64,000 bases of DNA from an uncultured Verrucomicrobiales bacterium (GTDB lineage: Bacteria; Verrucomicrobiota; Verrucomicrobiia; Verrucomicrobiales; Akkermansiaceae): contig CALGJQ010000029.1 of the NCBI GenBank assembly GCA_937928545.1, positions 1 through 64,000 on the forward strand. Reading direction: 5' to 3'. The notes beneath the pieces are model-generated. The model did not search any database and was not told where the DNA came from. It saw only the letters and a list, made by a program, of their open reading frames with translations. Position numbers and translations under genes: made by a program. Positions 122 to 13,225 of the stretch are shown here, in pieces (position 1 is the first letter of the stretch; every line of letters begins with the position of its first letter).

Positions 122-358
122 TCAAATCGGGGGAGCTTCAATACTCTCTCCGGGGGTGTAGTCCGGATAGACTGCGTCCTTTAACTCATCGGTGCTCAAG
201 CCCAATCCATGGTCACGATAGGCCCGCAACTTCGCGCGGCGATCAGTCTCTCGCAAAGCAAAATCAACGGCCTCAGTCTTGGTCTTGAAATCATGAGCCT
301 TCATGATGTCCTTCAAAACTTTTTCATCGATATGTAAGGTCATTTTCATGCCATACAC
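122..358 (-). CDS. VapB-like antitoxin (ribbon-helix-helix / DUF2191-type), with no PIN toxin partner visible
   Basis: The N-terminus MKMTLHIDEKVLKDIMKAHDFKTKTEAVDFALRE matches the VapB/DUF2191 antitoxin pattern. The downstream neighbour is a transposase fragment rather than a PIN-domain toxin. Confidence 0.5.
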   Translation of the reverse strand: MYGMKMTLHIDEKVLKDIMKAHDFKTKTEAVDFALRETDRRAKLRAYRDHGLGLSTDELKDAVYPDYTPGESIEAPPI

Positions 359-895
359 AGTATGGCTCCGTGTAAGAAAGGCAATAAAAATTAGTCTTCG
401 CTCCCAAACTGAGGGGGGGAGAAGAGGATGTTTGCAACGAGAATTGCCTGAAATAGACGCTCTTCAGGGCAGCTGAAGTATATCTCCGATTGATAGTCGT
501 AGTGCTTGAATTTCATGTCCTCCAATTGGAAATGGCGTGAGCCTCCCATCAGATCCATAAAAGTTCGTTTCGATTCACTACCAGTTATAAACGATTGTTT
601 CCCAAAATAACTTTTCTGAAACCATAGTGGGAAATTTGGGCGGGATGAAAGGTCGAGAGTGCTCTTAGTGAGCGAGAAATGAAATTTCCACGACTGGATC
701 AATTGGCCGTTCAGATCAGAAAGCCCGTAACTCGCACTTTTTTGAAAGAGAGACTGCTGAGATTGGAAAGAGAGCACGAAGGATTCGATCCGGTTAAGGT
801 GGACGGCAGCTGATGTTCTGTTCCCAGGCCTCTGCCAATCTCCTTGGTTCTTTTGCAAAGAGACTGCACCACGAAGCTGCTGGGTTGGCATGAGA

Positions 896-1997: not shown

Positions 1998-3068
1998 ATG
2001 CAAGCGAAAGGCCTACAACTCCTCGAATCTCTGACACAAGCCCACAGCATCCCCGGATATGAAGACGAGGTGAGAGAAATCTTCGTCAACGAACTCCGTG
2101 AACACGGTGAATTGGGGAGTGATCGGAATGGTTCGGTCTATTGTTCAAAAGGGACGAATGGCCCGAAGGTCCTTGTCGCGGGGCATATGGATGAGGTGGG
2201 CTTTCGGGTGCAAAATATTCTGCCCAATGGATATCTCAAGATGGTGCCAGTCGGCGGGTGGTGGGGGCATACCTTGCTCGCGCAGAGGGTCGAGGTGAAG
2301 AATAGCCATGGAGTTAAGATTATCGGGACGATTGCTTCGCGCCCTCCTCATTTCCTCTCTGAAGCGGAGCGAAACAGTGTGATTGGGGTTCCCAACATGT
2401 TTGTGGATATTGGCGCGCGTTCTCGGAAGGAAGTAGAAGATTGGGGGATTCATCTTGGAGATCCGATTTGCCCGTGGAGTCCATGGACGCCGATGCATCA
2501 GCCCGATTGGTATATGACCAAGGCTTTTGACAATCGGGTCGGGATGGCTGGAGCGATTCAAGTGGGGCAGGGAACTGCACCAAGTAATTGTCAGTTGATC
2601 GTGGCGGGCTCGGTTCAGGAGGAGGTGGGACTTCGCGGGGCTAAGACTTTGGCCAATGTGACAAAGCCCGATGTTGCAATTGTGCTTGAGGGGCCTCCAG
2701 CTGACGACACTCCAGGAATGCCGATTAGCGAGGGCCAGGGAGTGCTCGGAGGAGGTGTTCAAATCCGACTTCATGACCCTAGCGCAATTATGAATCCTCG
2801 CTTGGCGCAGTTTGCGATTGATATGGCAAGGCAGGAAGGAATTCCACATCAGGTAACCGTGAGAAACAGTGGGGGGACGGATGCTGGTTCATTTCATTTA
2901 GCGAATGATGGTGTTCCTTCGGTCGTTTTGGGAACGCCTGCTAGATATATCCATTCTCACAATGCCATCATCTGTGCGGCGGACTATCATGCCATGGTCG
3001 CTCTGACTCAGGCCATGGTGAATCATCTCGATGAAGAGGCCGTGAGCGGGTTTTCTCGCTACATATAA
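1998..3068 (+). CDS. M42-family glutamyl aminopeptidase (FrvX/YsdC-like)
   Basis: Carries AGHMDEVGF, DNRVG and QEEVGLRGA motifs typical of M42 peptidases. Confidence 0.85.
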   Translation: MQAKGLQLLESLTQAHSIPGYEDEVREIFVNELREHGELGSDRNGSVYCSKGTNGPKVLVAGHMDEVGFRVQNILPNGYLKMVPVGGWWGHTLLAQRVEVKNSHGVKIIGTIASRPPHFLSEAERNSVIGVPNMFVDIGARSRKEVEDWGIHLGDPICPWSPWTPMHQPDWYMTKAFDNRVGMAGAIQVGQGTAPSNCQLIVAGSVQEEVGLRGAKTLANVTKPDVAIVLEGPPADDTPGMPISEGQGVLGGGVQIRLHDPSAIMNPRLAQFAIDMARQEGIPHQVTVRNSGGTDAGSFHLANDGVPSVVLGTPARYIHSHNAIICAADYHAMVALTQAMVNHLDEEAVSGFSRYI

Positions 3069-3123
3069 TTTCTGAAGATAATTATAATGGAGCTAGTTTC
3101 CTAAATCTGATTTCCTCTGCACT

Positions 3124-3753
3124 GTGAAGGAGATTTGGGAACAGGCGTTTTTGATTTATAATCTGCCACTGACACTTTTGTTGGGGTTGGTTGCTGTTTT
3201 TTGGATCGTGAGTCTTCTTGGAGTTGCTGATTTCGATACCGAGATGGACCTCGATCTGGATGCAGACGGAGATTTGCAGGGTGGTGAGAGTGCTTTTGGA
3301 GTCCTGATGAGGTTGGTCAATGCGCACGATGTTCCGCTCATGCTGGTTCTCAGCCTACTCACTCTTTTTATGTGGCTGATCTCGATTGCGAGTAACTTCT
3401 ATTTGAACTCTGGGGAGAGTGGTCTTGTTGCTTTCGGACTTTTGTTCGTCAATTTCATCATCAGCGTAATTTTTGTGAAGCTCGTCACGCAGCCGCTGCG
3501 TCCGATGTTTCGTTCAATTAGGAATGACAAGGAACACCAAGAGCCATTGATCGGATCAACTGGTTTTGTAAAAAGCCGGGTGCTGGATGCGGACTTTGGC
3601 CAGTGTGAGGTGATTCGACCGAAAGGTGCACCAGCGTTGCTTAACTGCCGACTTGCTGAGGGTGAGGAACCGCTCGTCCGCGGTGACGAAATTTTAGTGA
3701 TCGGCCACGATGACGACACCCGCAAATTTATTATTAAACCAATCAAAAACTAA
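3124..3753 (+). CDS. NfeD-like / YqiJ-type membrane protein (flotillin partner)
   Basis: N-terminal TM helices, an acidic stretch and a C-terminal OB-fold-like region. It sits immediately upstream of the flotillin gene, the classic NfeD-SPFH pairing. Confidence 0.6.
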   Translation: MKEIWEQAFLIYNLPLTLLLGLVAVFWIVSLLGVADFDTEMDLDLDADGDLQGGESAFGVLMRLVNAHDVPLMLVLSLLTLFMWLISIASNFYLNSGESGLVAFGLLFVNFIISVIFVKLVTQPLRPMFRSIRNDKEHQEPLIGSTGFVKSRVLDADFGQCEVIRPKGAPALLNCRLAEGEEPLVRGDEILVIGHDDDTRKFIIKPIKN

Positions 3754-3763
3754 AAACTGAATT

Positions 3764-5821
3764 ATGAAAATGCATGAACTAATGCCCCTCGCTCTTGCTC
3801 AAGAGCTCGTTGTGATCGGAGGGATTGCGCTCTTAGCGCTTATCGCCGTTGCCGTCTTTCTTCTGATGACCTTTTACCGAAAGGTGGAGAAAGGAACGGC
3901 TCTTGTCCGAACTGGTTTCGGTGGAACCAAGGTCTATTTCAATGGTGGGGTCGTTTATCCCGTTCTCCATCGGATCGATCATATGGATATTTCGTTGAAG
4001 CGGATCGAGATCGACCGGACCGGGAAGAATGGTCTAATCTGTCAGGATAACCTTCGGGCAGATATTAAAGTGGCCTTCTTTGTCCGCGTGAATAATGCGG
4101 CAGAAGATGTCCTCCGCGTGGCTGAGTCGATTGGTTGTGATCGTGCCTCATCCGAAGATGAGATTCGTGCTCTCTTCGACGCGAAGTTCTCTGAAGCTCT
4201 CAAGACGGTTGGTAAGCGTTTCGAGTTCATCGCGCTTTACGAGGATCGCGATACTTTCCGTGACGAGATTTTGAAAGTGATCGGAACCGATCTTAATGGC
4301 TTTGTTCTTGATGATGCGGCGATTGATTACCTAGAGCAGACCCCGCTCTCGATGCTGGATCCGGACAACATTCTTGATGCCGAAGGTATTAAGAAAATCA
4401 CAGAGCTGACTGCGGCGCAGGCAAAGCTCGCGAACAATATTCAGCGCGACAAAGAAAAGGTCATTAAGCAGCAGGACGTCGAGGCTCGTGAAGCAATTCT
4501 TGAGCTGGAGCGCCAGCTTGCTGAAACCGAAGCGAAGCAACAGCGGGAGGTGGAGACGGTTCAGTTCCGCGAAGAAGCGGAGGCATTAAAAGTGCAGGAA
4601 GAAGAGCGTCAGAAATCTGAACAAGCTCGTATTTCTGCGGAGGAAGAAATTCAAATTTCAGAAGAGAACAAGCAACGCCAGGTTTTGGTTGCGCAGCGGA
4701 ACAAGGAGCGCACCGACGGTGTCGAGCTGGAGCGCGTAGAGCGTGATCGCATGCTTGAAGAAATTGAGCGGAAACGTGCGACTGAGCTGAAGTCAATTGA
4801 AGCTGAGAAAGTGGTTGAGATTCAGAAGAAGGAAATTCAAGAAGTGATCCGCGAGCGGGTGGCTGTTGAAAAAGGAGTCGTTGAAGAGCAGCAGCGAATC
4901 AAGGATACCGAGGAATTTGCGACTGCAGATCGATTCAAGCAAGTCACCGTGACGACGGCTGAGGCGAATGCGCAGGAAGCTTTGATCAGTAAAATCAAGG
5001 ACGCCGAGGCTCAGAAGGAGTCTGCTCAATTGAAGGCGGATGAAGAGGCTTACACGGTCGTGAAAGAAGCTGAGGCAGCCAAGACCGCAGCTGAAATGCG
5101 GGCATCGGAGCGAATCATCCAAGCTGAGGCCGAGGAGACTGCAGCTGAGAAGGAATCATCTGCGAAGAAGATGCTAGCCGAAGGAATCGCAAAAGAAGCC
5201 GCTGCCGAAGGTATGGGCGAAGCCGAGGTCCTCCGGGCTAAGGGAACTGCTGATGCCGAAGTGGTGCGTGCGATGGGTGATGCCGATGCTAATGCGATTG
5301 AGCAGAAAGCGGCTGCGATGAAGCTCTTTGAAGAAGCCGGACAGGAGCACGAGGAATTCAAGCTCGAGCTTGATAAAGAGAAGGTCATCGAGCTCGCTGA
5401 GATCGATGTGCAACGTCAGATTGCCGAGCAGCAAGCTGTCGTGGTGGGTGAAGCGCTTAAGTCGGCCAATATCGACATCGTCGGTGGCGAGACTGAGTTC
5501 TTTGACCGAATCACCAAGGCGATCACGACTGGTAAAGTGGTGGATCGGACCGTCGGAAACAGCCGCGTCTTGGATGATGTGAAGGAGACTTTCTTCAATG
5601 GGGATCCTGAATACTTTAAGAGTCAGTTGTCTACCTGGATTGATGACTTTGGAATTAAGACGGAAGATCTTAAGAATCTAAGTATTAGTGCCCTTCTTGG
5701 CGACCTAGTCGGCACCGCGAAAGGTGAAGAACGGAAGAAGATCGTCGGTATGCTCGGCGCTGCGGAGAGATTCGGAGTGGGTGAGATGAAAGCTGCTGAG
5801 TTGATTAAGAAGCTTGGGTAG
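3764..5821 (+). CDS. Flotillin-family SPFH protein (YqiK/FloT-like)
   Basis: N-terminal TM, an SPFH domain (GFGGTKVYFNGGVVYPVLHRID...) and a long E/A/K-rich coiled-coil tail. Confidence 0.85.
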   Translation: MKMHELMPLALAQELVVIGGIALLALIAVAVFLLMTFYRKVEKGTALVRTGFGGTKVYFNGGVVYPVLHRIDHMDISLKRIEIDRTGKNGLICQDNLRADIKVAFFVRVNNAAEDVLRVAESIGCDRASSEDEIRALFDAKFSEALKTVGKRFEFIALYEDRDTFRDEILKVIGTDLNGFVLDDAAIDYLEQTPLSMLDPDNILDAEGIKKITELTAAQAKLANNIQRDKEKVIKQQDVEAREAILELERQLAETEAKQQREVETVQFREEAEALKVQEEERQKSEQARISAEEEIQISEENKQRQVLVAQRNKERTDGVELERVERDRMLEEIERKRATELKSIEAEKVVEIQKKEIQEVIRERVAVEKGVVEEQQRIKDTEEFATADRFKQVTVTTAEANAQEALISKIKDAEAQKESAQLKADEEAYTVVKEAEAAKTAAEMRASERIIQAEAEETAAEKESSAKKMLAEGIAKEAAAEGMGEAEVLRAKGTADAEVVRAMGDADANAIEQKAAAMKLFEEAGQEHEEFKLELDKEKVIELAEIDVQRQIAEQQAVVVGEALKSANIDIVGGETEFFDRITKAITTGKVVDRTVGNSRVLDDVKETFFNGDPEYFKSQLSTWIDDFGIKTEDLKNLSISALLGDLVGTAKGEERKKIVGMLGAAERFGVGEMKAAELIKKLG

Positions 5822-5835
5822 GGGAGTTTCTAAAC

Positions 5836-5863
5836 CACGAATCGACACGAATTATCACGAATC
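5836..5863. repeat. Left arm of an inverted repeat flanking the GxxExxY gene (CACGAAT x3, cacgaattatcacgaatc)
   Basis: Seen directly in the sequence. Its reverse-complement partner lies at 6272..6289. Confidence 0.6.
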
Positions 5864-5870
5864 CCTACCG

Positions 5871-6248
5871 ATGCTGGACTTAGTATTCAAAAAGGAGTCC
5901 TATGAAATTATAGGAGCTTGTTTTGAGGTCTATAACGAACATGGGAATGGGTTTCTGGAGTCAATTTATCATGAGTCACTTATTCTAGAGCTTGCCTTCA
6001 AGAAAATCCCTTCTGTTTCTGAACCTCGTCTTGAGGTGAAGTATAAAGGCCAACTCTTGAAGAAGACATGTCGGCCTGATTTCGTTTGCCACAGTAAGAT
6101 CATTGTTGAAATTAAAGCGGTAAGGGAGCTTACGGACGAACATCGAGGTCAGGTTCTTAACTACTTGAAGGCAACCGGTTTTAAGCTGGGCCTCTTGGTG
6201 AATTTTGGAGCAAAGGACGAACTTCAATATGAACGTATCGTCCTCTAG
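5871..6248 (+). CDS. GxxExxY-family protein (PD-(D/E)xK nuclease superfamily)
   Basis: ESYEIIGACFEVYNEHGNGFLESIYHESLILEL matches the GxxExxY (TIGR04256-type) signature. Length is about 125 aa, and the start is placed at MLDLVFKK inside the longer ORF 5814..6248. Confidence 0.8.
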   Translation: MLDLVFKKESYEIIGACFEVYNEHGNGFLESIYHESLILELAFKKIPSVSEPRLEVKYKGQLLKKTCRPDFVCHSKIIVEIKAVRELTDEHRGQVLNYLKATGFKLGLLVNFGAKDELQYERIVL

Positions 6249-6271
6249 AATCCAGCAAGACCACCAACCAT

Positions 6272-6289
6272 GATTCGTGAATATTCGTG
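6272..6289. repeat. Right arm of the inverted repeat flanking the GxxExxY gene (gattcgtgaatattcgtg)
   Basis: Its reverse complement, cacgaatattcacgaatc, matches cacgaattatcacgaatc at 5846..5863 apart from a 2-nt swap. Confidence 0.6.
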
Positions 6290-6394
6290 CAGATCCGTGG
6301 TTAAACCAACCAAAACCAAAGCCCCAACTCCAATCATAAATCCTCAACCCAGCTTTCGTTTATTTCGTAAGTTTTGTGGTTGGCCTAATTCCAA

Positions 6395-9300
6395 ATGCCA
6401 GAAGAAAAACAACAGTTAGAAGGCGGTGCCTATGAAGTGATCCGTGCTCGTCTTGAGAAGGGCGGGGGAGAGCTTCAGGCCCGTATGACCGCGCTTAATG
6501 CCGAACGGCAAGAAGTGTTTGGGGCCGTGGAGACTGAGTTGGTTTCGACCGAGCGAGTTTCGACGGAACATAATTGTGTTCCTCGTGACATTATTGCGGT
6601 CGGGGCGAACCGCTTTATCTTTGGCTACAATATTCAGTTTGGGCTGAAGGCGACGACGAGCATCGAAGATGTTTTTGCGGCTTACGATTACGATCCCGAG
6701 TCGCATTCGTTTGCGGCAGCCAATATTTCCGAGGTCTTGGCGGATTCGAGTTTCTTGGAGGATTTTAAGTATCTCTTTAAATACTACCGTGAAGCGGTTT
6801 TTGTGAAGTTCATGGTGATTGGGCCGCATCTCTTCATGGCGATGCGGATTGGTAAGGCGATCACCGACCTCAAAGCCTTCAAGTGGTTGATCCAAGGTGA
6901 TGGAACTTTGGAATATCTGGGGAACCGCTTTGATCATGAATATCAATTCCCGCCACAGCAGGAATTTGAATGGCAGCGGGCGCATCGCGATATGCAGCGC
7001 TCGGGAGAGCATCCGCATATCTCGATCGAAGATCGGGTCTTTGTCGAGACGGTGGGCGGAGATCTTACCATTAAGGTGGAGGATAATACGGCCACTGGAG
7101 CTGGGGTTTACCAAGAGCCAGTCACGGAGCTGGATCAAACTCTGGATGATGCGGAGATTCTCTACGCGACGGTGGGGCCATTGATTTTGTTGAAGATTCT
7201 TCCTTATCGGGAAGAGCTGCATCGTTATCTCGTCTTCAATGAGAAGACCCAATCGGTGCATCGGATCGATGCGATTGGTCATTCCTGTGTCCTGCTGCCA
7301 GACGAGCAAGGACTCATCTTTTCAAATGGTTACCTCTTGCTGACAGGAGAGTCTAAAATCTTCGAGACCGATCTCACTGACATGCGCTTTGAGCGGCGAG
7401 TTCTGAGTGCTAACGGGGAGGATACCCTCTTCGTTTTCTACAATCGCCTCAGTGGAGATTACGTTCTCCTTTCCTATAACATGATCAGTCAGTCGGTCGA
7501 GACACCGGTGATCTGTAGTGGTTATTCACTCTTTCCAGATGGGCGAATGATCATTTTTCGAGGTGAGACCGAGGCTTCGAAACATCATGCTTTGCAAATT
7601 TGGCAAACATCTTATCTCAGCGATGAGGTTGCCTCTAGCCAAGCCACGAGTGGTGAATCTTTGCTTTTTAAGATTGGCAATGCCGAGCTGGTGCGCGGGA
7701 TGGCGGAGTGTCGTGAGGTGCTGACCTTGCTTCGCAAAGACGATAGCTACGGCGATCTCTATTTAGACCTAAGTAAGAAGACGGGAGATATCATCGACTC
7801 GTATTTCTGGTTAGGACAAGAGGAGGCTGGTGATCTGGCGGCGCCGTTGAAAGACATCCGAGGTGCGGCCACGTCGGCGATCGATGAGTTTGAGAAAGTG
7901 CAAGGGCTGCGTCGTTCGACAGGTGAACGCACGAAGGCGGTTCGCGAAACAGCGGGGGAACTTCTGCGTGCGATTCGTCACTCACCGGCAGACGATATTT
8001 TCGGTTTTGTGCACCATCTTGCCGAATTACGAAAGAGCCGCGGCGAGGTCATCGGCTTGCGCGATTTGCGTTATGTGGATGAAGCTCTGGTGGGAGAGCT
8101 TGAAAAAGAGATCGTAGAAGCAAGCGAGAAGACGGCGGGTAAGACGGTTGAGTTTTTGTTGAAGCCTGAGGCGCTGGATCCTTATCTGAAAGCGGTCGAG
8201 GAGCAGGAAGCCCGCGTGCCTAAGTTGGCAAAAGTGGTGGAAGCTGATGAGGTCGTGGAGTCCTTAGACGCGGCCGGTGGTGAGCTCGAGATGCTGATTG
8301 ATATTGTCGGGAATCTAAAGATTGAAGACGCCACGCAGACCACGGCGATCATCGATAGTATTTCTGCGATTTACTCGACTCTGAATGGGGTCCGAGCGGG
8401 GCTTAAAAATAAGCGGCTCGACTTGGCGAAGGGTGAAGGTGTTGCCCAATTTGGGGCGCAGATGAAGCTGCTCAGTCAGGCGGTGGTGAACTACCTAGAC
8501 CTTTGCGATACGCCCAAAAAGTGTGAGGAATACCTGACGAAGGTGATGGTTCAGTTGGAAGAGCTTGAGGGGAAATTCTCAGAGTTTGACGACTATGTGG
8601 AAGAGCTTTCGGGTAAGCGTGAGGAGATTTACGAGGCCTTTGAAAGCCGTAAGCAGTCGCTTTTAGAAAAGAAGAACCGCCGCACGAATCAATTGGTGAA
8701 ATCTGCGGAGCGGATTCTTTCGGGAATCAAGAATCGCTTAGAAGGATTCAGTGAGATCAACGAGATCAATGGCTACTTCGCCAGCGACCTTATGATTGAG
8801 AAGGTTCGCGACATCATCGAAGAGCTTACGGAGCTGGGTGATGCGGTGAAGGGTGATGATATTCAGACGCGGCTCAAGACCACTCGTGACGATGCCGTTC
8901 GCGCGCTAAAGGATCGTAAGGAACTCTTTGTCGATGGGGAGGCGATCATCAAATTTGGAAAGCATCGTTTCTCGGTCAATGAGCAAGAATTGGAGCTGAG
9001 TATCGTGCCGAAGGAAGGCGAGATGTGCTTCCACCTGAGTGGGACGAATTTCTTTGAACCGGTGACGAATGAGGAATTCCTCGCGACCGAGTCGGTTTGG
9101 GATCAGGAAGTGATTTCCGAGACGAATGAGGTTTATCGTTCCGAGTGGTTGGCTTACCAATTTCTGCTGAACGGGGGAGATCAGACGCTGGAGCAATTTA
9201 TGCAGCCGCGCTATAACGAAGGTTATCTTAAGGGTGTACATGATTTGGATGCGGCAAAGCTCATTGAGGCTCTCCGACCAATGCAGGAAAAGGCGGGACT

Positions 9301-11374
9301 CTTGAGGTTCAGCCCAAGGATACGCGCGAAGGCACTGCTGGCTTGGGACGCTCTCGACGACGAGATTCGTTCGGATCTTTCGATTCGATTGCGTGCTCAT
9401 GGTGAGAAGCGAAAAGCATTTGGTGAGAGTGAATTCACCAAAGTTCAAGGTGAGGTCTTTATTGCTGAAATGTCTCAACATTTTACCGAGGATCAGGCTG
9501 AATACCTTTTCGAGGAAATTTCGAATGGCCCTGACTTTGTCGTTTCCAAGGCTTCGGTGACCTTGGCAGAGCGTTTGAAATCGGAATTACTTTCGAAACG
9601 AGCTGGGAAGATTTTTGAAGCAGCCTTGGCGGAATTTGAAGACTCCTTGGAAGGTCGCTTCGCAGTGGCTTTTGATTGGTTAGGATCGTTTACGGTCGAC
9701 GACGAAATTTACGAGGCTGCTTACTGGATTGCTAAAGGTGGTTATGAAGAACGTTGGGTAAAAGACGCCCAGCTTTCTCTTTCGGTCGAGGGCGTGAAGG
9801 GAAGTCATGCTCGAATTGAGAACGCGGAAATTGCGCTCAACTATCACGAGTTCATGGATCGTCTTTCGCTCTTTGCGCGAGAAGAAGTGCCAATTTTTGA
9901 AAGCTACTTGGAATCGAAGCAGAACTTGGTCGATGAGAAGCGGGACGAGATGCGCTTGGAGGAATTTAAACCACGTGTGATGTCGGCCTTTGTTCGGAAC
10001 CGTCTCATTAATGAGGTTTATCTTCCGATGGTGGGCGATAATCTCGCGAAGCAGATGGGAACGGCGGGTGATGACACGCGCACCGATCGAATGGGTCTCT
10101 TGCTACTCATCTCTCCTCCGGGTTACGGAAAGACGACCTTGATGGAATACATCGGAAATCGTCTTGGCCTGACCTTCATGAAAATTAATGGCCCAGCGCT
10201 GGGTCATAATGTGACTTCGCTCGATCCCTTAGACGCGCCGAATGCGTCAGCACGGGAGGAAGTTGAGAAGCTCAACCTCGCGCTAGAGATGGGGGACAAT
10301 GTCATGATTTATCTCGATGACATCCAGCACACTCATTCGGAGTTTTTGCAAAAATTCATCAGTCTCTGTGATGGGCAACGTAAGATCGAAGGGGTCTATA
10401 ATGGTAAGGCTAAGACCTATGACCTGCGTGGCAAAAAGATCGCGGTTGTCATGGCGGGTAACCCTTATACTGAGACCGGTGGGAAGTTTCAGATCCCGGA
10501 TATGTTGGCGAACCGCGCGGATACTTATAACCTGGGTGATATTTTGGGAGATCATGAGGAGGCCTTTAAGGTGAGCTTTGTGGAGAACTGCCTGACTTCA
10601 AATAGCGTGCTCAATAAGTTGGCCAGTAAGAGCCAGAAAGATGTCTATGCCGCTCTTGCAGTTGCGGAAACTGGAAGCACGGAGGGAGTCGATTTTGAGG
10701 GAAACTATACGCCGGCTGAGATTGAGGAATTTTCTCAAACTCTCAAACGTCTCCTGCGAGTGCGCGACACCATCATGCGAGTGAATATGGAGTATATCCG
10801 CAGCGCGGCGCAGGAGGATGCCTATCGCTTGGAGCCAGCCTTTAAGCTGCAGGGATCGTATCGAAACATGAACCGCATTGCGGAGAAGGTGCTTCCGCTC
10901 ATGACGATGGAAGAGGTGGAGGGGTTGATCTTTGATCACTACGAGAACGAATCGCAAACGCTCACCACGGGGGCTGAGGCGAACCTCTTGAAATTTAGGG
11001 AGATGGAAGGTGTTTTATCTGAGGAGGAAGAGACTCGCTGGGCTCAAATTAAGAAGGACTTTGGCAAGCAGAAGCTCCTCGGTGGGGCCGGTGAGAATGA
11101 TCCGGTGGCGCGGGTGGTGGCGCAGATGACTCAGTTCAATGATGGTCTAGAAGCGATCAGCCAAGGGCTCGTGAAGCCACCTGCCTTGGCTGAAGCATCG
11201 ATTGCTCAGCTTCAGGCGATTATCGAAGGCCTGCGTGCGGTTCCAGTGCAGGTCGATATCAACGTCGTTCCAGTGCAGGACGAAGGCGATAGCATCGAGA
11301 GCATTTCTAAAAAGCCAAGTTCATCGCCGATCGATATCGAGCCGGAGGTGAGGCAGGGAGAGGATTTAAACTAG
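6395..11374 (+). CDS. Giant multidomain protein (1659 aa) with a C-terminal AAA+ (AAA_5/MoxR/McrB-like) ATPase module; function unknown
   Basis: Walker A LLISPPGYGKTTLMEY, Walker B VMIYLDDIQH, a sensor-1-like VVMAGNPY and an Arg in LANRADTYNL lie around nt 10100-10560. These are preceded by about 450 aa of possible beta-rich sequence and about 700 aa of coiled-coil-like E/K/L-rich sequence. Confidence 0.8.
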   Translation: MPEEKQQLEGGAYEVIRARLEKGGGELQARMTALNAERQEVFGAVETELVSTERVSTEHNCVPRDIIAVGANRFIFGYNIQFGLKATTSIEDVFAAYDYDPESHSFAAANISEVLADSSFLEDFKYLFKYYREAVFVKFMVIGPHLFMAMRIGKAITDLKAFKWLIQGDGTLEYLGNRFDHEYQFPPQQEFEWQRAHRDMQRSGEHPHISIEDRVFVETVGGDLTIKVEDNTATGAGVYQEPVTELDQTLDDAEILYATVGPLILLKILPYREELHRYLVFNEKTQSVHRIDAIGHSCVLLPDEQGLIFSNGYLLLTGESKIFETDLTDMRFERRVLSANGEDTLFVFYNRLSGDYVLLSYNMISQSVETPVICSGYSLFPDGRMIIFRGETEASKHHALQIWQTSYLSDEVASSQATSGESLLFKIGNAELVRGMAECREVLTLLRKDDSYGDLYLDLSKKTGDIIDSYFWLGQEEAGDLAAPLKDIRGAATSAIDEFEKVQGLRRSTGERTKAVRETAGELLRAIRHSPADDIFGFVHHLAELRKSRGEVIGLRDLRYVDEALVGELEKEIVEASEKTAGKTVEFLLKPEALDPYLKAVEEQEARVPKLAKVVEADEVVESLDAAGGELEMLIDIVGNLKIEDATQTTAIIDSISAIYSTLNGVRAGLKNKRLDLAKGEGVAQFGAQMKLLSQAVVNYLDLCDTPKKCEEYLTKVMVQLEELEGKFSEFDDYVEELSGKREEIYEAFESRKQSLLEKKNRRTNQLVKSAERILSGIKNRLEGFSEINEINGYFASDLMIEKVRDIIEELTELGDAVKGDDIQTRLKTTRDDAVRALKDRKELFVDGEAIIKFGKHRFSVNEQELELSIVPKEGEMCFHLSGTNFFEPVTNEEFLATESVWDQEVISETNEVYRSEWLAYQFLLNGGDQTLEQFMQPRYNEGYLKGVHDLDAAKLIEALRPMQEKAGLLRFSPRIRAKALLAWDALDDEIRSDLSIRLRAHGEKRKAFGESEFTKVQGEVFIAEMSQHFTEDQAEYLFEEISNGPDFVVSKASVTLAERLKSELLSKRAGKIFEAALAEFEDSLEGRFAVAFDWLGSFTVDDEIYEAAYWIAKGGYEERWVKDAQLSLSVEGVKGSHARIENAEIALNYHEFMDRLSLFAREEVPIFESYLESKQNLVDEKRDEMRLEEFKPRVMSAFVRNRLINEVYLPMVGDNLAKQMGTAGDDTRTDRMGLLLLISPPGYGKTTLMEYIGNRLGLTFMKINGPALGHNVTSLDPLDAPNASAREEVEKLNLALEMGDNVMIYLDDIQHTHSEFLQKFISLCDGQRKIEGVYNGKAKTYDLRGKKIAVVMAGNPYTETGGKFQIPDMLANRADTYNLGDILGDHEEAFKVSFVENCLTSNSVLNKLASKSQKDVYAALAVAETGSTEGVDFEGNYTPAEIEEFSQTLKRLLRVRDTIMRVNMEYIRSAAQEDAYRLEPAFKLQGSYRNMNRIAEKVLPLMTMEEVEGLIFDHYENESQTLTTGAEANLLKFREMEGVLSEEEETRWAQIKKDFGKQKLLGGAGENDPVARVVAQMTQFNDGLEAISQGLVKPPALAEASIAQLQAIIEGLRAVPVQVDINVVPVQDEGDSIESISKKPSSSPIDIEPEVRQGEDLN

Positions 11375-12360
11375 GATCCCGTTTGAAACGGCTTCACCTT
11401 ACCAAGTTCTAATGATCCTCCGAGCCAGGCGAGGAGTTGGTTCATCTCGGGGTGGTCATTCCGAAGCGCTTGGAGGGAATCCCAGCCACAGTGCGTGCGG
11501 CCACGAGCGGAGGAAATTTTCTCAATTTTAAGTCGTCCCATGAGTGCTTCAGTTTCACGATCCATGGCATTCTGAATTTGGGCAGGATGGGGGAGGTCAT
11601 CGAGATCAATGGCTGATAGTCCAAAGCTGGTCACGCCAATTCCCAAATCAGCAGCAAGAGCGCGGACTTGATCACCAAGAGATTCATCCTGAATCGAGCC
11701 AGCGAGGTAAAGTTCACCTGAATTTGCCCAAGGGGAGGCACTCATGGTTTGGAAAAGGTCTTCGCGAAAGCTATTGTGCGTGGTTTCGACCCTCATTCGG
11801 ATGGATTCGAGCCGGTAAGGTGGAAGTCCGAGAGTTTGTTTGAGGGCGAGATGGGCGGGGTCGAGTTCCAAGCCATCGTCATCAAATTCACCGTGCTCCC
11901 AATCGACGAGAACCATTTCGGGGAACTTCCAGAGATTTCCAAGAGGGGCATCAGCAGAGAGTGATTCGCGGAATTCAAAGGTGAACTTATTTCGAGTCTC
12001 AGCGTATTTTTGCACGATGGCGCGAAACTTGCCGAGACGAAGCATCGCTTGATCCACGGAGCTATTGTCACCCAGCTCATCGAGACGTCCTTGCTGCATC
12101 GCTACTAACTCGTGAGCGCCCGAGAGCGCTGGCATAGCGGCACCGCGTTTGTAGTAGCCTTGACCTTTTTCAACCTTGGCAATCGGGGAGCTAGGATCGC
12201 AGGACATCACGGAGAAGTGATAGCGAAGAGAGGCATCAGAGTATGATCCATCCATGCGGAGTCTCAGAAGCCGAATTAACTCAGTTCCCTTGATGGCCTC
12301 CGTTGGGTTTGCGGGTAAGATCTCGGAAAGAAGGTCGGTAAGTTGTGTGCGGAGACTCAT
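11371..12360 (-). CDS. Hypothetical protein (329 aa), convergent with the giant AAA gene and overlapping it by 4 nt
   Basis: Long ORF with balanced composition and no recognisable motif. Confidence 0.55.
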   Translation of the reverse strand: MSLRTQLTDLLSEILPANPTEAIKGTELIRLLRLRMDGSYSDASLRYHFSVMSCDPSSPIAKVEKGQGYYKRGAAMPALSGAHELVAMQQGRLDELGDNSSVDQAMLRLGKFRAIVQKYAETRNKFTFEFRESLSADAPLGNLWKFPEMVLVDWEHGEFDDDGLELDPAHLALKQTLGLPPYRLESIRMRVETTHNSFREDLFQTMSASPWANSGELYLAGSIQDESLGDQVRALAADLGIGVTSFGLSAIDLDDLPHPAQIQNAMDRETEALMGRLKIEKISSARGRTHCGWDSLQALRNDHPEMNQLLAWLGGSLELGKVKPFQTGS

Positions 12361-12538
12361 TATGAAGTTTTAAAAAAGCGACGTGAAAGGACTAAAGAGA
12401 TGCAACTTGATGAGGACTACTTTGGGCAAGCCTCAAGTCACAAGAATGCTAAAATTTTTTGCTAATCGAAGGTGACTTTTCCATCGAATGAATTAATTCC
12501 TCTTGCCGTCTCATTTCACGAAGTGTTAAAAAACCAGC

Positions 12539-13225
12539 ATGAAAGTAATCCTAGCCCTAAGCCTTTCCCTCGCCCTTTCTCCATTTTCTCAAGCACAGAC
12601 CGCTGAGGATATCATGTCATCGGTCCGTCAAGTGGCCGTTTTACAGGGATCTCAGGATCTCAGTGGGGTGATCCGGAAAGGGTCTAAGAAAACCCCTCTT
12701 ACTCTTTTCCTGCGCGGAAAGGACATTCAGTTTGCTCTGAATGGAGGAGCCGAGCGCTTTCACTTACGATTGAACGAGGATACTCAGCAATTGCGGGAGC
12801 TTGTAGGAGGAAAGTCTCGTCCCTTTCCAAGTGCTAAGATTTCTGCTCCGATCTCGAACACTGACGTAAGCTACGAGGATCTGGCCTTGAAGTTCCTCTA
12901 TTGGCCTCAGCCTCGGATTATTCAAGAGGAGAAGATCAATGGTCAACTTTGTTGGCGCCTTCACGTCGTGAATCCAGAAAAGACTGGGCGTTATCGCGAA
13001 GTGAGCGTCTGGGTGACTAAGAATCAACGCGCGCTTATGAGAGTGGTGGGATATGGTCCACGGCCAGCGACGGTGGCTCTAAAGCAATTTGAAATCACCG
13101 ATGTGATGAAGGTCAACGGAGTTTTCACGGTGGAAACGATGAAAGTGAGCACTTTCAGCAAAGATCGCCGCGTGAGCGGGATCACCTATCTGGAATTCAA
13201 GAAGCCGAAGCGTAAGGGTCGCTAA
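12539..13225 (+). CDS. Secreted LolA-like / outer-membrane lipoprotein-sorting-like protein
   Basis: Signal peptide MKVILALSLSLALSPFSQAQT and a size and pattern reminiscent of LolA-like proteins. The assignment is weak. Confidence 0.4.
   Translation: MKVILALSLSLALSPFSQAQTAEDIMSSVRQVAVLQGSQDLSGVIRKGSKKTPLTLFLRGKDIQFALNGGAERFHLRLNEDTQQLRELVGGKSRPFPSAKISAPISNTDVSYEDLALKFLYWPQPRIIQEEKINGQLCWRLHVVNPEKTGRYREVSVWVTKNQRALMRVVGYGPRPATVALKQFEITDVMKVNGVFTVETMKVSTFSKDRRVSGITYLEFKKPKRKGR

Follow-up and report, generated by a model that had tools for sequence, protein, structure and literature searches.

A giant DUF3686-family AAA+ ATPase encoded with a dedicated flotillin and a YqiJ/NfeD-type protein in a conserved bacterial module

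The role of bacterial flotillins and the regulation of their assemblies are still debated. The protein pairs YqiJ-YqiK of Escherichia coli and YuaF-FloT of Bacillus subtilis are homologous to the products of the first two genes of the locus described here, and the complete locus has a close precedent. Ravi et al. (2024, mSystems, PMC11237479) described such an operon from sequence, often accompanied by CesT/Tir-PspA genes, and reported abbreviated operons without PspA to be more widespread, suggesting that these work with PspA encoded elsewhere. Neighborhoods of PspA, band-7/FloT, NfeD and a helix-turn-helix (HTH) regulator were noted by Popp et al. (2022). Here we analyzed 64,000 nt of contig CALGJQ010000029.1 from an uncultured Verrucomicrobiales bacterium (the whole stretch is named the window), in which the plus-strand genes at 3124-3753, 3764-5821 and 6395-11374 form one conserved module of a YqiJ/NfeD-type protein, a dedicated flotillin paralog and a soluble giant AAA+ ATPase. 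The window matches the operon of Ravi et al. in its three proteins and their order, with the flotillin (YqiK match, E = 1.5e-42), the three-transmembrane (3TM) YqiJ/YuaF-type protein and the divergent beta-propeller ATPase all present, and it differs by a GxxExxY cassette between the flotillin and ATPase genes. In E. coli K-12, in contrast, yqiJK is not followed by a DUF3686 ATPase gene. Since the protein family is catalogued and the operon was described in 2024, the value of the present analysis lies in sharper evidence rather than in discovery: Ravi et al. give the operon one sentence, without structure, subfamily analysis or experiment, and we add quantified synteny, the exclusivity of the flotillin subfamily, a MoxR-like fold, a domain map, the recognition of GxxExxY as an inserted cassette and the lack of support for the name "DNA repair".

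The conservation of the module was investigated by scanning one genome per species of the GTDB for relatives of the ATPase. At least 589 relatives were found and 80 loci were fetched, which by record title belong to Verrucomicrobiota, Planctomycetota, Bacteroidota, Desulfobacterota and Clostridia; the 64 loci with at least 2.8 kb of upstream sequence were taken as informative. In 62 of these 64 loci the ATPase gene is immediately preceded, on the same strand, by a flotillin-like gene, and a YqiJ-like gene precedes the flotillin in 55 of 62 informative loci, with a median gap of 16 nt between the two across loci. The gap between flotillin and ATPase is at most 150 nt in 35 of 70 loci. None of the other genes beside the module in the window (an M42 peptidase, a DAHP synthase, a 329-aa open reading frame (ORF) and a LolA-like gene) is conserved across loci. 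Furthermore, the same gene order is annotated in the Pseudomonas fluorescens plasmid pQBR103 and in a Streptomyces plasmid, annotated records extend the flotillin-ATPase link to Actinomycetota, Deinococcota and Gammaproteobacteria, and homologs in a plasmid collection occur also in Deinococcus, Nonomuraea, Proteus, Vibrio, Photobacterium and Halomonas. Collectively, the ATPase gene stands behind its own flotillin and YqiJ/NfeD genes in at least 10 bacterial phyla, and the operonic linkage of ATPase, flotillin and YqiJ is near-obligate across phyla.

In the window itself the linkage is less compact. The flotillin stop codon at 5821 and the ATPase start at 6395 are separated by 573 nt that hold only the GxxExxY gene, as an earlier sequence-only reading of this DNA had described with a distance of about 570 bp. 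This distance and the unrelated gene within it would allow the adjacency to be coincidental, a notion to which we attach virtually no probability: order and strand are the same in 62 of 64 loci from several phyla, the insert is lineage-specific, and the flotillin subfamily is exclusive to the ATPase (see below), by which the coincidence is refuted. The same reading had tied the ATPase to the NfeD-flotillin pair and looked to related loci that lack GxxExxY and place the giant gene directly after flotillin. Both expectations are borne out, since the synteny spans several phyla and the insert is confined to close Akkermansiaceae relatives. A promoter and terminator scan of 2900-12600 found sites no more frequently than in shuffled sequence, and therefore the operon boundaries are not readable from it.

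The first gene of the module (3124-3753, plus strand) encodes a 209-aa NfeD-like membrane protein of the YqiJ/YuaF type. This protein has three hydrophobic segments and an acidic loop, and its C-terminal tail is beta-rich and OB-like. The profile of its family (A6) matches E. coli YqiJ with an hhalign probability of 95.9% (E = 5.8e-9), and Pfam YqiJ_N is matched by 8 of 21 family members (best 9.6e-7); the top PDB profile match, the YuaF NfeD domain 2k14, is not significant (E = 0.12). After a gap of 10 nt follows the flotillin gene (3764-5821, plus strand), whose 685-aa product consists of an N-terminal transmembrane (TM) segment, an SPFH (band-7) domain, a coiled coil and a subfamily-specific C-terminal domain at about aa 500-685 with the invariant residues H529, E530, E531 and F532. 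The alignment of this family's profile (A5) with E. coli YqiK extends over 380 columns and takes in the SPFH domain and the coiled coil (hhalign probability 100%, E = 1.5e-42), and Band_7 of Pfam is matched by 2 of 26 members (best 3.3e-13). These family profiles were needed, as single-sequence searches of Pfam, NCBIfam and PDB gave nothing significant for either protein. The NfeD-flotillin assignment made from the letters alone thus holds, and the profiles identify the pair as yqiJ-yqiK-type genes. Compared with the 553 aa of E. coli YqiK, the window flotillin is longer, and its C-terminal 186 aa bear no similarity to the C-terminus of YqiK.

The flotillin of the module can be distinguished from other flotillins by the company it keeps. 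Among 72,556 records of the plasmid collection, the ATPase occurs in 13, mostly chromids or chromosome-sized records, while the SPFH half of the window flotillin matches 322 records. The 13 best of these 322 (39-60% identity, E ≤ 2e-50) are exactly the 13 ATPase-carrying records, and the other 309 reach at most 34% identity and have no ATPase match. The C-terminal domain of 186 aa is found in 10 records, all of them inside the 13 with the ATPase. By these matches the partner flotillin is classed as a distinct subfamily that, in the plasmid collection, co-occurs exclusively with the ATPase. Being paired only with its own flotillin paralog in at least 10 phyla, this soluble AAA+ enzyme gives genetics and biochemistry a concrete point of access to the regulation of flotillins. 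The pairwise divergences of flotillin and ATPase are also correlated over 64 loci (Mantel r = 0.68, p = 0.001), a correlation that we read as shared history and not as contact. One metagenomic protein of 1798 aa (P0312) is an apparent in-frame fusion: its residues 2-421 correspond to flotillin profile positions 194-608, and the chain then continues as the ATPase, beginning at about residue 224 of the latter. It was set aside as Rosetta-stone evidence, since the case is a single protein in which the flotillin part is truncated and the ATPase part is missing its first ~220 residues. Besides a true fusion, a deletion (pseudogene) or an assembly artifact could account for it.

The giant gene (6395-11374, plus strand) has an ATG start and encodes 1659 aa. 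A stop-free run of this many random codons has a chance of about 2.6e-35, and the ATG at 6395 agrees with the homologs, as the alignment consensus starts at the same methionine. The sequence-only reading had listed three motifs in this single ORF, and all were located: the Walker A motif GYGKTT at aa 1243-1248, YLDDIQH at aa 1306-1312 with the Walker B residues D1308 and D1309, and NRADTYNL at aa 1373-1380 including R1374. The three motifs are invariant in 26 homologs that are only 32-53% identical to the window protein. No hydrophobic run of 15 or more residues and no stretch of TM length were found in the whole 1659 aa, and the protein is therefore predicted to be soluble. That reading had not recognized the architecture as any characterized protein; it is instead a catalogued one. 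PF12458 (DUF3686) matches aa 26-471 over profile positions 1-448 of 448 (E = 1.1e-186, 621.2 bits against a cut-off of 25), PF25472 (DUF7902) matches aa 592-674 (E = 1.6e-27, 95.9 bits against 26), and PF00004 (AAA) gives a weak match at aa 1236-1314 (E = 1.5e-6, 29.1 bits against 21.2). More than 6000 homologs are present in a collection of 5.8 billion proteins, and 439 clusters formed at 50% identity have matches at E ≤ 1e-30. Homologs of 1640-1720 aa align at 100% query coverage, the collinear architecture of 1600-1900 aa is maintained down to 27% identity, and the motifs SPPGYGKTT and LQGSYR are common to the window ATPase and the full-length homologs. On these profile matches, the window ATPase belongs to the large family defined by DUF3686, DUF7902 and AAA. 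Its closest relatives come from metagenome-assembled genomes (MAGs) of Akkermansiaceae and Verrucomicrobiaceae, and the window is therefore verrucomicrobial; homologs with 61-85% identity occur in many named Verrucomicrobiota genera. PDB searches with the single sequence and with the profile returned only P-loop-level matches to p97, Rix7 and RuvB, and hence no relative with a solved structure.

The databases attach a different function to this family. The Pfam title of PF12458 is "ATPase involved in DNA repair", and many members are named "DNA repair ATPase" by NCBI. Apart from the name itself, such a role could draw on the P-loop-level similarity to RuvB (E ~ 1e-3 over ~45 residues). No DNA-binding or nuclease domain was detected in searches of Pfam and NCBIfam type, and repair genes are not among the recurrent neighbors. 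The genes conserved beside the ATPase encode membrane proteins, its best structural matches are chaperone-type ATPases of the MoxR group, and no publication backs the name. In the literature, no paper was found that mentions DUF3686 or PF12458 or that joins "DNA repair ATPase" with flotillin. We rejected a DNA repair function, with no feature in its support, as highly improbable, and the widely propagated name is probably wrong.

The domain anatomy of the ATPase was derived from AlphaFold2 (AF2) models of aa 1-720 (mean predicted local distance difference test score (pLDDT) 86.9) and aa 1151-1659 (mean pLDDT 81.8). A long N-terminal helix at aa 11-42 (6425-6520; model m0a919eb2b768, DSSP helix H11-42) is followed by a divergent beta-propeller-like domain at aa 48-404 (6536-7606), which forms the core of DUF3686. 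This domain has ~27 modeled strands, in agreement with the beta-rich N-terminal domain predicted earlier from the letters alone, and Foldseek matches it to propellers with low TM-scores. A helical-bundle, spectrin-like region of long helices occupies aa 423-720 (7661-8554) and includes DUF7902 (aa 592-674, 8168-8416). The middle region (aa 721-1150, 8555-9844) has no Pfam match and is described by its conservation profile only, being moderately conserved at aa 701-950 and containing the least conserved internal stretch at aa 951-1150. Linker helices at aa 1151-1221 precede the AAA+ core, and the span of ~800 aa is helical as far as the models of aa 1-720 and 1151-1659 reach. The AAA+ alpha/beta core (aa 1233-1383, 10091-10543) carries Walker A (10121-10138), Walker B (10316-10321, inside YLDDIQH at 10310-10330), a modeled pre-sensor-1 beta-hairpin (aa 1330-1343, 10382-10426), sensor-1 N1356 and NRADTYNL with R1374 (10511-10534). 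The AAA+ lid and a C-terminal helical extension (aa 1388-1614, 10556-11236) contain the invariant FKLQGSYRN motif (10841-10867), in which R1490 is a candidate sensor-2 residue. The chain ends in an acidic tail (aa 1619-1659, 11249-11371) that is poorly conserved (0.14) and modeled with pLDDT below 50 (model residues 469-509). The AAA+ core and lid are the best conserved parts of the protein, and aa 951-1150 and the tail the least.

The AAA+ fold is nearest to members of the MoxR group, lid placement included. Between beta2 and alpha2 only a conserved 18-residue loop (GPALGHNVTSLDP) is present, with no predicted hairpin. Pfam AAA_5 falls just under its cut-off in the window protein (21.2 against 22 bits) and AAA_3 gives no match; many homologs carry a precomputed PF07728 match. 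From the models, the C-terminal module is predicted to be a MoxR-like AAA+ domain with intact nucleotide-binding residues. The likeness to the MoxR ATPases CbbQ, NorQ and RavA is distant, at only 12-15% identity, and the window ATPase differs from them by ~1200 extra N-terminal residues, a Walker B pair that is D-D instead of the usual D-E in all 26 homologs, and an operon without a gene for a VWA partner. Other ATPase types fit less well: no significant match to a defence-system model and no McrC-like partner were found that would place the protein with McrB-type or known defence ATPases, and it has neither the M41 peptidase domain nor the TM anchor of FtsH-type enzymes.

The D-D Walker B and the absent VWA partner are both unusual for a MoxR system and would be compatible with a switch-like or scaffold role. 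The protein could act mainly as a coat- or cytoskeleton-like structure that shapes or tethers flotillin domains, with the AAA+ module as a nucleotide-controlled oligomerization switch and not a motor. The invariant D-D, the helical region of ~800 aa, the propeller-then-helical layout and Foldseek matches to clathrin heavy chain, IFT-A and nucleoporins point in this direction. However, the TM-scores of these matches are very low (0.1-0.3), the helical part resembles short bundles and not solenoids, and conservation is highest in the AAA+ core, where all catalytic-type residues are present. We consider a mainly structural role quite improbable.

In our view the best explanation of the module, to which we give about an even chance of being right, is that the ATPase is an ATP-driven remodeler of the flotillin scaffold, or of proteins held by it, in a membrane-stress or membrane-repair response. 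The proposal draws on SPFH-NfeD cages in the literature (QmcA-YbbJ, HflK/C-FtsH) and on MoxR and other AAA+ remodelers. The flotillin and YqiJ would form an oligomer of the SPFH type at the inner membrane, on its cytoplasmic face, in the way that the solved structure of QmcA-YbbJ shows. The ATPase would oligomerize, presumably as a ring, via its MoxR-like AAA+ module, and would dock on the flotillin assembly via the beta-propeller and the helical arm, possibly at the subfamily-specific C-terminal domain of the flotillin. ATP would then be spent on the assembly, disassembly or remodeling of the flotillin scaffold or its client proteins. This activity would belong to a membrane-stress or membrane-repair response, in which PspA and a CesT/Tir-like chaperone are encoded alongside the module in other lineages. 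In terms of analogy, the ATPase would be to the flotillin scaffold what Vps4 is to ESCRT-III, or what FtsH is in the HflK/C cage, though with no protease domain. A functional analogy from the literature is offered by HflK/C-FtsH and prohibitin-m-AAA, where an SPFH protein and an AAA+ ATPase are genetically coupled as in the window module; unlike in HflK/C-FtsH, the window ATPase has no protease domain or TM segment, is of the MoxR-like instead of the classic FtsH-type clade, and is paired with a flotillin-type instead of an HflK/C-type SPFH protein. Vps4, which acts on ESCRT-III/PspA polymers, is likewise an AAA+ enzyme, and the DUF3686 ATPase, encoded with PspA-family genes in some lineages, would have a comparable proposed role in polymer remodeling. 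The more specific form of the idea, in which the DUF3686 ATPase is a dedicated ATP-dependent assembly and disassembly factor docking on the C-terminal domain of the flotillin, is put forward tentatively and is rather doubtful as it stands. If true, it would give bacterial flotillin microdomains an energy-driven cycle and provide a prokaryotic counterpart, for SPFH proteins, of the logic of Vps4/ESCRT-III or NSF/SNARE.

Several points weigh against this reading. The ATPase occurs without an adjacent flotillin or YqiJ in a Desulfobacteraceae MAG (L032) and a Bacteroidia MAG (L043), the only two such loci among those with ample upstream sequence, which are possibly relocated or orphan copies. Five verrucomicrobial loci from Limisphaerales, Pedosphaera and related MAGs (L047, L057, L062, L064 and L065) have flotillin and ATPase genes with no recognizable YqiJ gene upstream; in the first four of these a conserved protein of ~290 aa with no Pfam match is encoded just downstream of the ATPase, and the Limisphaerales/Pedosphaera-type loci may represent a variant module. 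The Walker B pair is D-D and not D-E, so that slow nucleotide switching may describe the ATPase better than processive motor activity. The VWA partner typical for MoxR proteins was found neither in the ATPase (Pfam), nor in two annotated operons, nor among the annotated recurrent neighbor families, in a search that was not exhaustive. No experimental data on any family member, and no experimental study of the family, were found in the literature, and physical contact between ATPase and flotillin is proposed from gene context. The sequence-only reading had suggested a membrane-microdomain-associated ATPase machine: comparative genomics gives good support to the association of the ATPase with flotillin, through the conserved flotillin/NfeD linkage, and the machine itself is a proposal drawn from that gene context.

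The membrane-stress side of the proposal derives from other lineages. In 17-19 Bacteroidota loci, which reproduce the five-gene form of the operon of Ravi et al., genes for CesT_Tir_1 (1.4e-52) and PspA (2.2e-41) lie just upstream of the module in the same orientation, with a divergent HTH regulator beyond them. With hidden Markov models built from these 17-19 loci, no PspA or CesT was found among the ORFs of the 64-kb window at E ≤ 1. The window therefore holds the abbreviated three-gene form, and the link to membrane stress is indirect here, which is a further point against the proposed response. The Bacteroidota operons also raise the alternative that the ATPase targets PspA/ESCRT-III-type polymers or other membrane clients, as a bacterial Vps4 analog for PspA, with flotillin and YqiJ as the platform only. 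The shared operon of CesT/Tir, PspA and module and the PspA gene upstream in pQBR103 are consistent with it, as is the suggestion of Ravi et al. that abbreviated operons act with PspA encoded elsewhere. Yet PspA was detected in only 19 of 81 loci, and flotillin is near-obligate. We therefore regard PspA as an unlikely main substrate, though a better candidate than a purely structural role, and retain remodeling of the flotillin scaffold as the preferred reading.

In pQBR103, a megaplasmid of P. fluorescens SBW25 (L082; NC_009444.1, 85.4-97.6 kb), the module is joined to a longer same-strand cluster. Its order is PspA, a rhomboid protease, DUF2491, DUF350, DUF1190 and a glutathionylspermidine-synthase-like gene, followed by the YqiJ-like, SPFH and ATPase genes. 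Beside PspA, the genes upstream of the module are of the E. coli yjf type, a polyamine-linked cluster.

The GxxExxY/PD-(D/E)XK_3 gene between flotillin and ATPase (plus strand; TIGR04256 1.3e-39, PF13366 5e-39) was called at 5871-6248, with the longest ORF starting from a TTG at 5814. It lies within a unit at 5833-6302 whose two ends are 31-nt inverted repeats (5833-5863 and 6272-6302, 84% complementary). Both arms are built of CACGAAT units with 10 nt spacing, and CACGAAT-N3-CACGAAT occurs five times in the window, where 0.48 matches would be expected; four of these occurrences lie inside the repeat arms. Five of 81 loci carry the gene, namely the window's own contig (L001) and four close Akkermansiaceae/Verrucomicrobiae relatives, and it is thus a lineage-specific insert outside the conserved module. 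With its terminal inverted repeats, the unit looks like a small mobile cassette. The gap between flotillin and ATPase exceeds 400 nt in 24 of 70 loci, most of them with extra small ORFs. The four gap inserts that were annotated are of selfish type and vary with lineage: an IS200 Y1 transposase (L004, 6802-7251), a DUF559 endonuclease-like gene (L023, 818-1258; also L039, L041, L074 and L081), DMP19 (L022, 8621-9250) and GxxExxY in the window. The gap appears to be a recurrent insertion site in an otherwise tight operon.

The gathering of small selfish genes (GxxExxY, IS200, DUF559 and DMP19) beside the ATPase, its few copies on megaplasmids and the frequency of large coiled-coil AAA+ proteins in defence systems would suit an anti-phage or conflict system, with the protein as a large sensor or effector acting through the membrane. 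Against such a system, PADLOC gave no significant match (best LmuB 0.0058 and IetA 0.0074), no match was found in 50,697 phage records, the ATPase-carrying plasmid records are as few and as chromosome-like as given above, and no defence genes recur across the 80 loci. The spread of homologs over many named Verrucomicrobiota genera and the housekeeping neighbors in the window (DAHP synthase, M42 peptidase and aspartate kinase) likewise weigh against a defence role. A defence function was rejected on the PADLOC result, the phage and plasmid counts and the neighbors, and we hold it to be very unlikely.

Two further features of the window lie outside the module. A convergent ORF of 329 aa (11371-12360, minus strand) overlaps the stop codon of the ATPase gene by 4 nt and was matched by nothing in Pfam, NCBIfam or PADLOC. 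Outside the window's own contig (L001), only two close relatives (L002 and L075) conserve it. Upstream of the DAHP synthase gene, on the identical public contig L001, a 78-aa gene with a weak Pfam match to VapB antitoxins (122-358, minus strand) adjoins a 128-aa gene without a match (391-777, minus strand), and the two may form a toxin-antitoxin pair.

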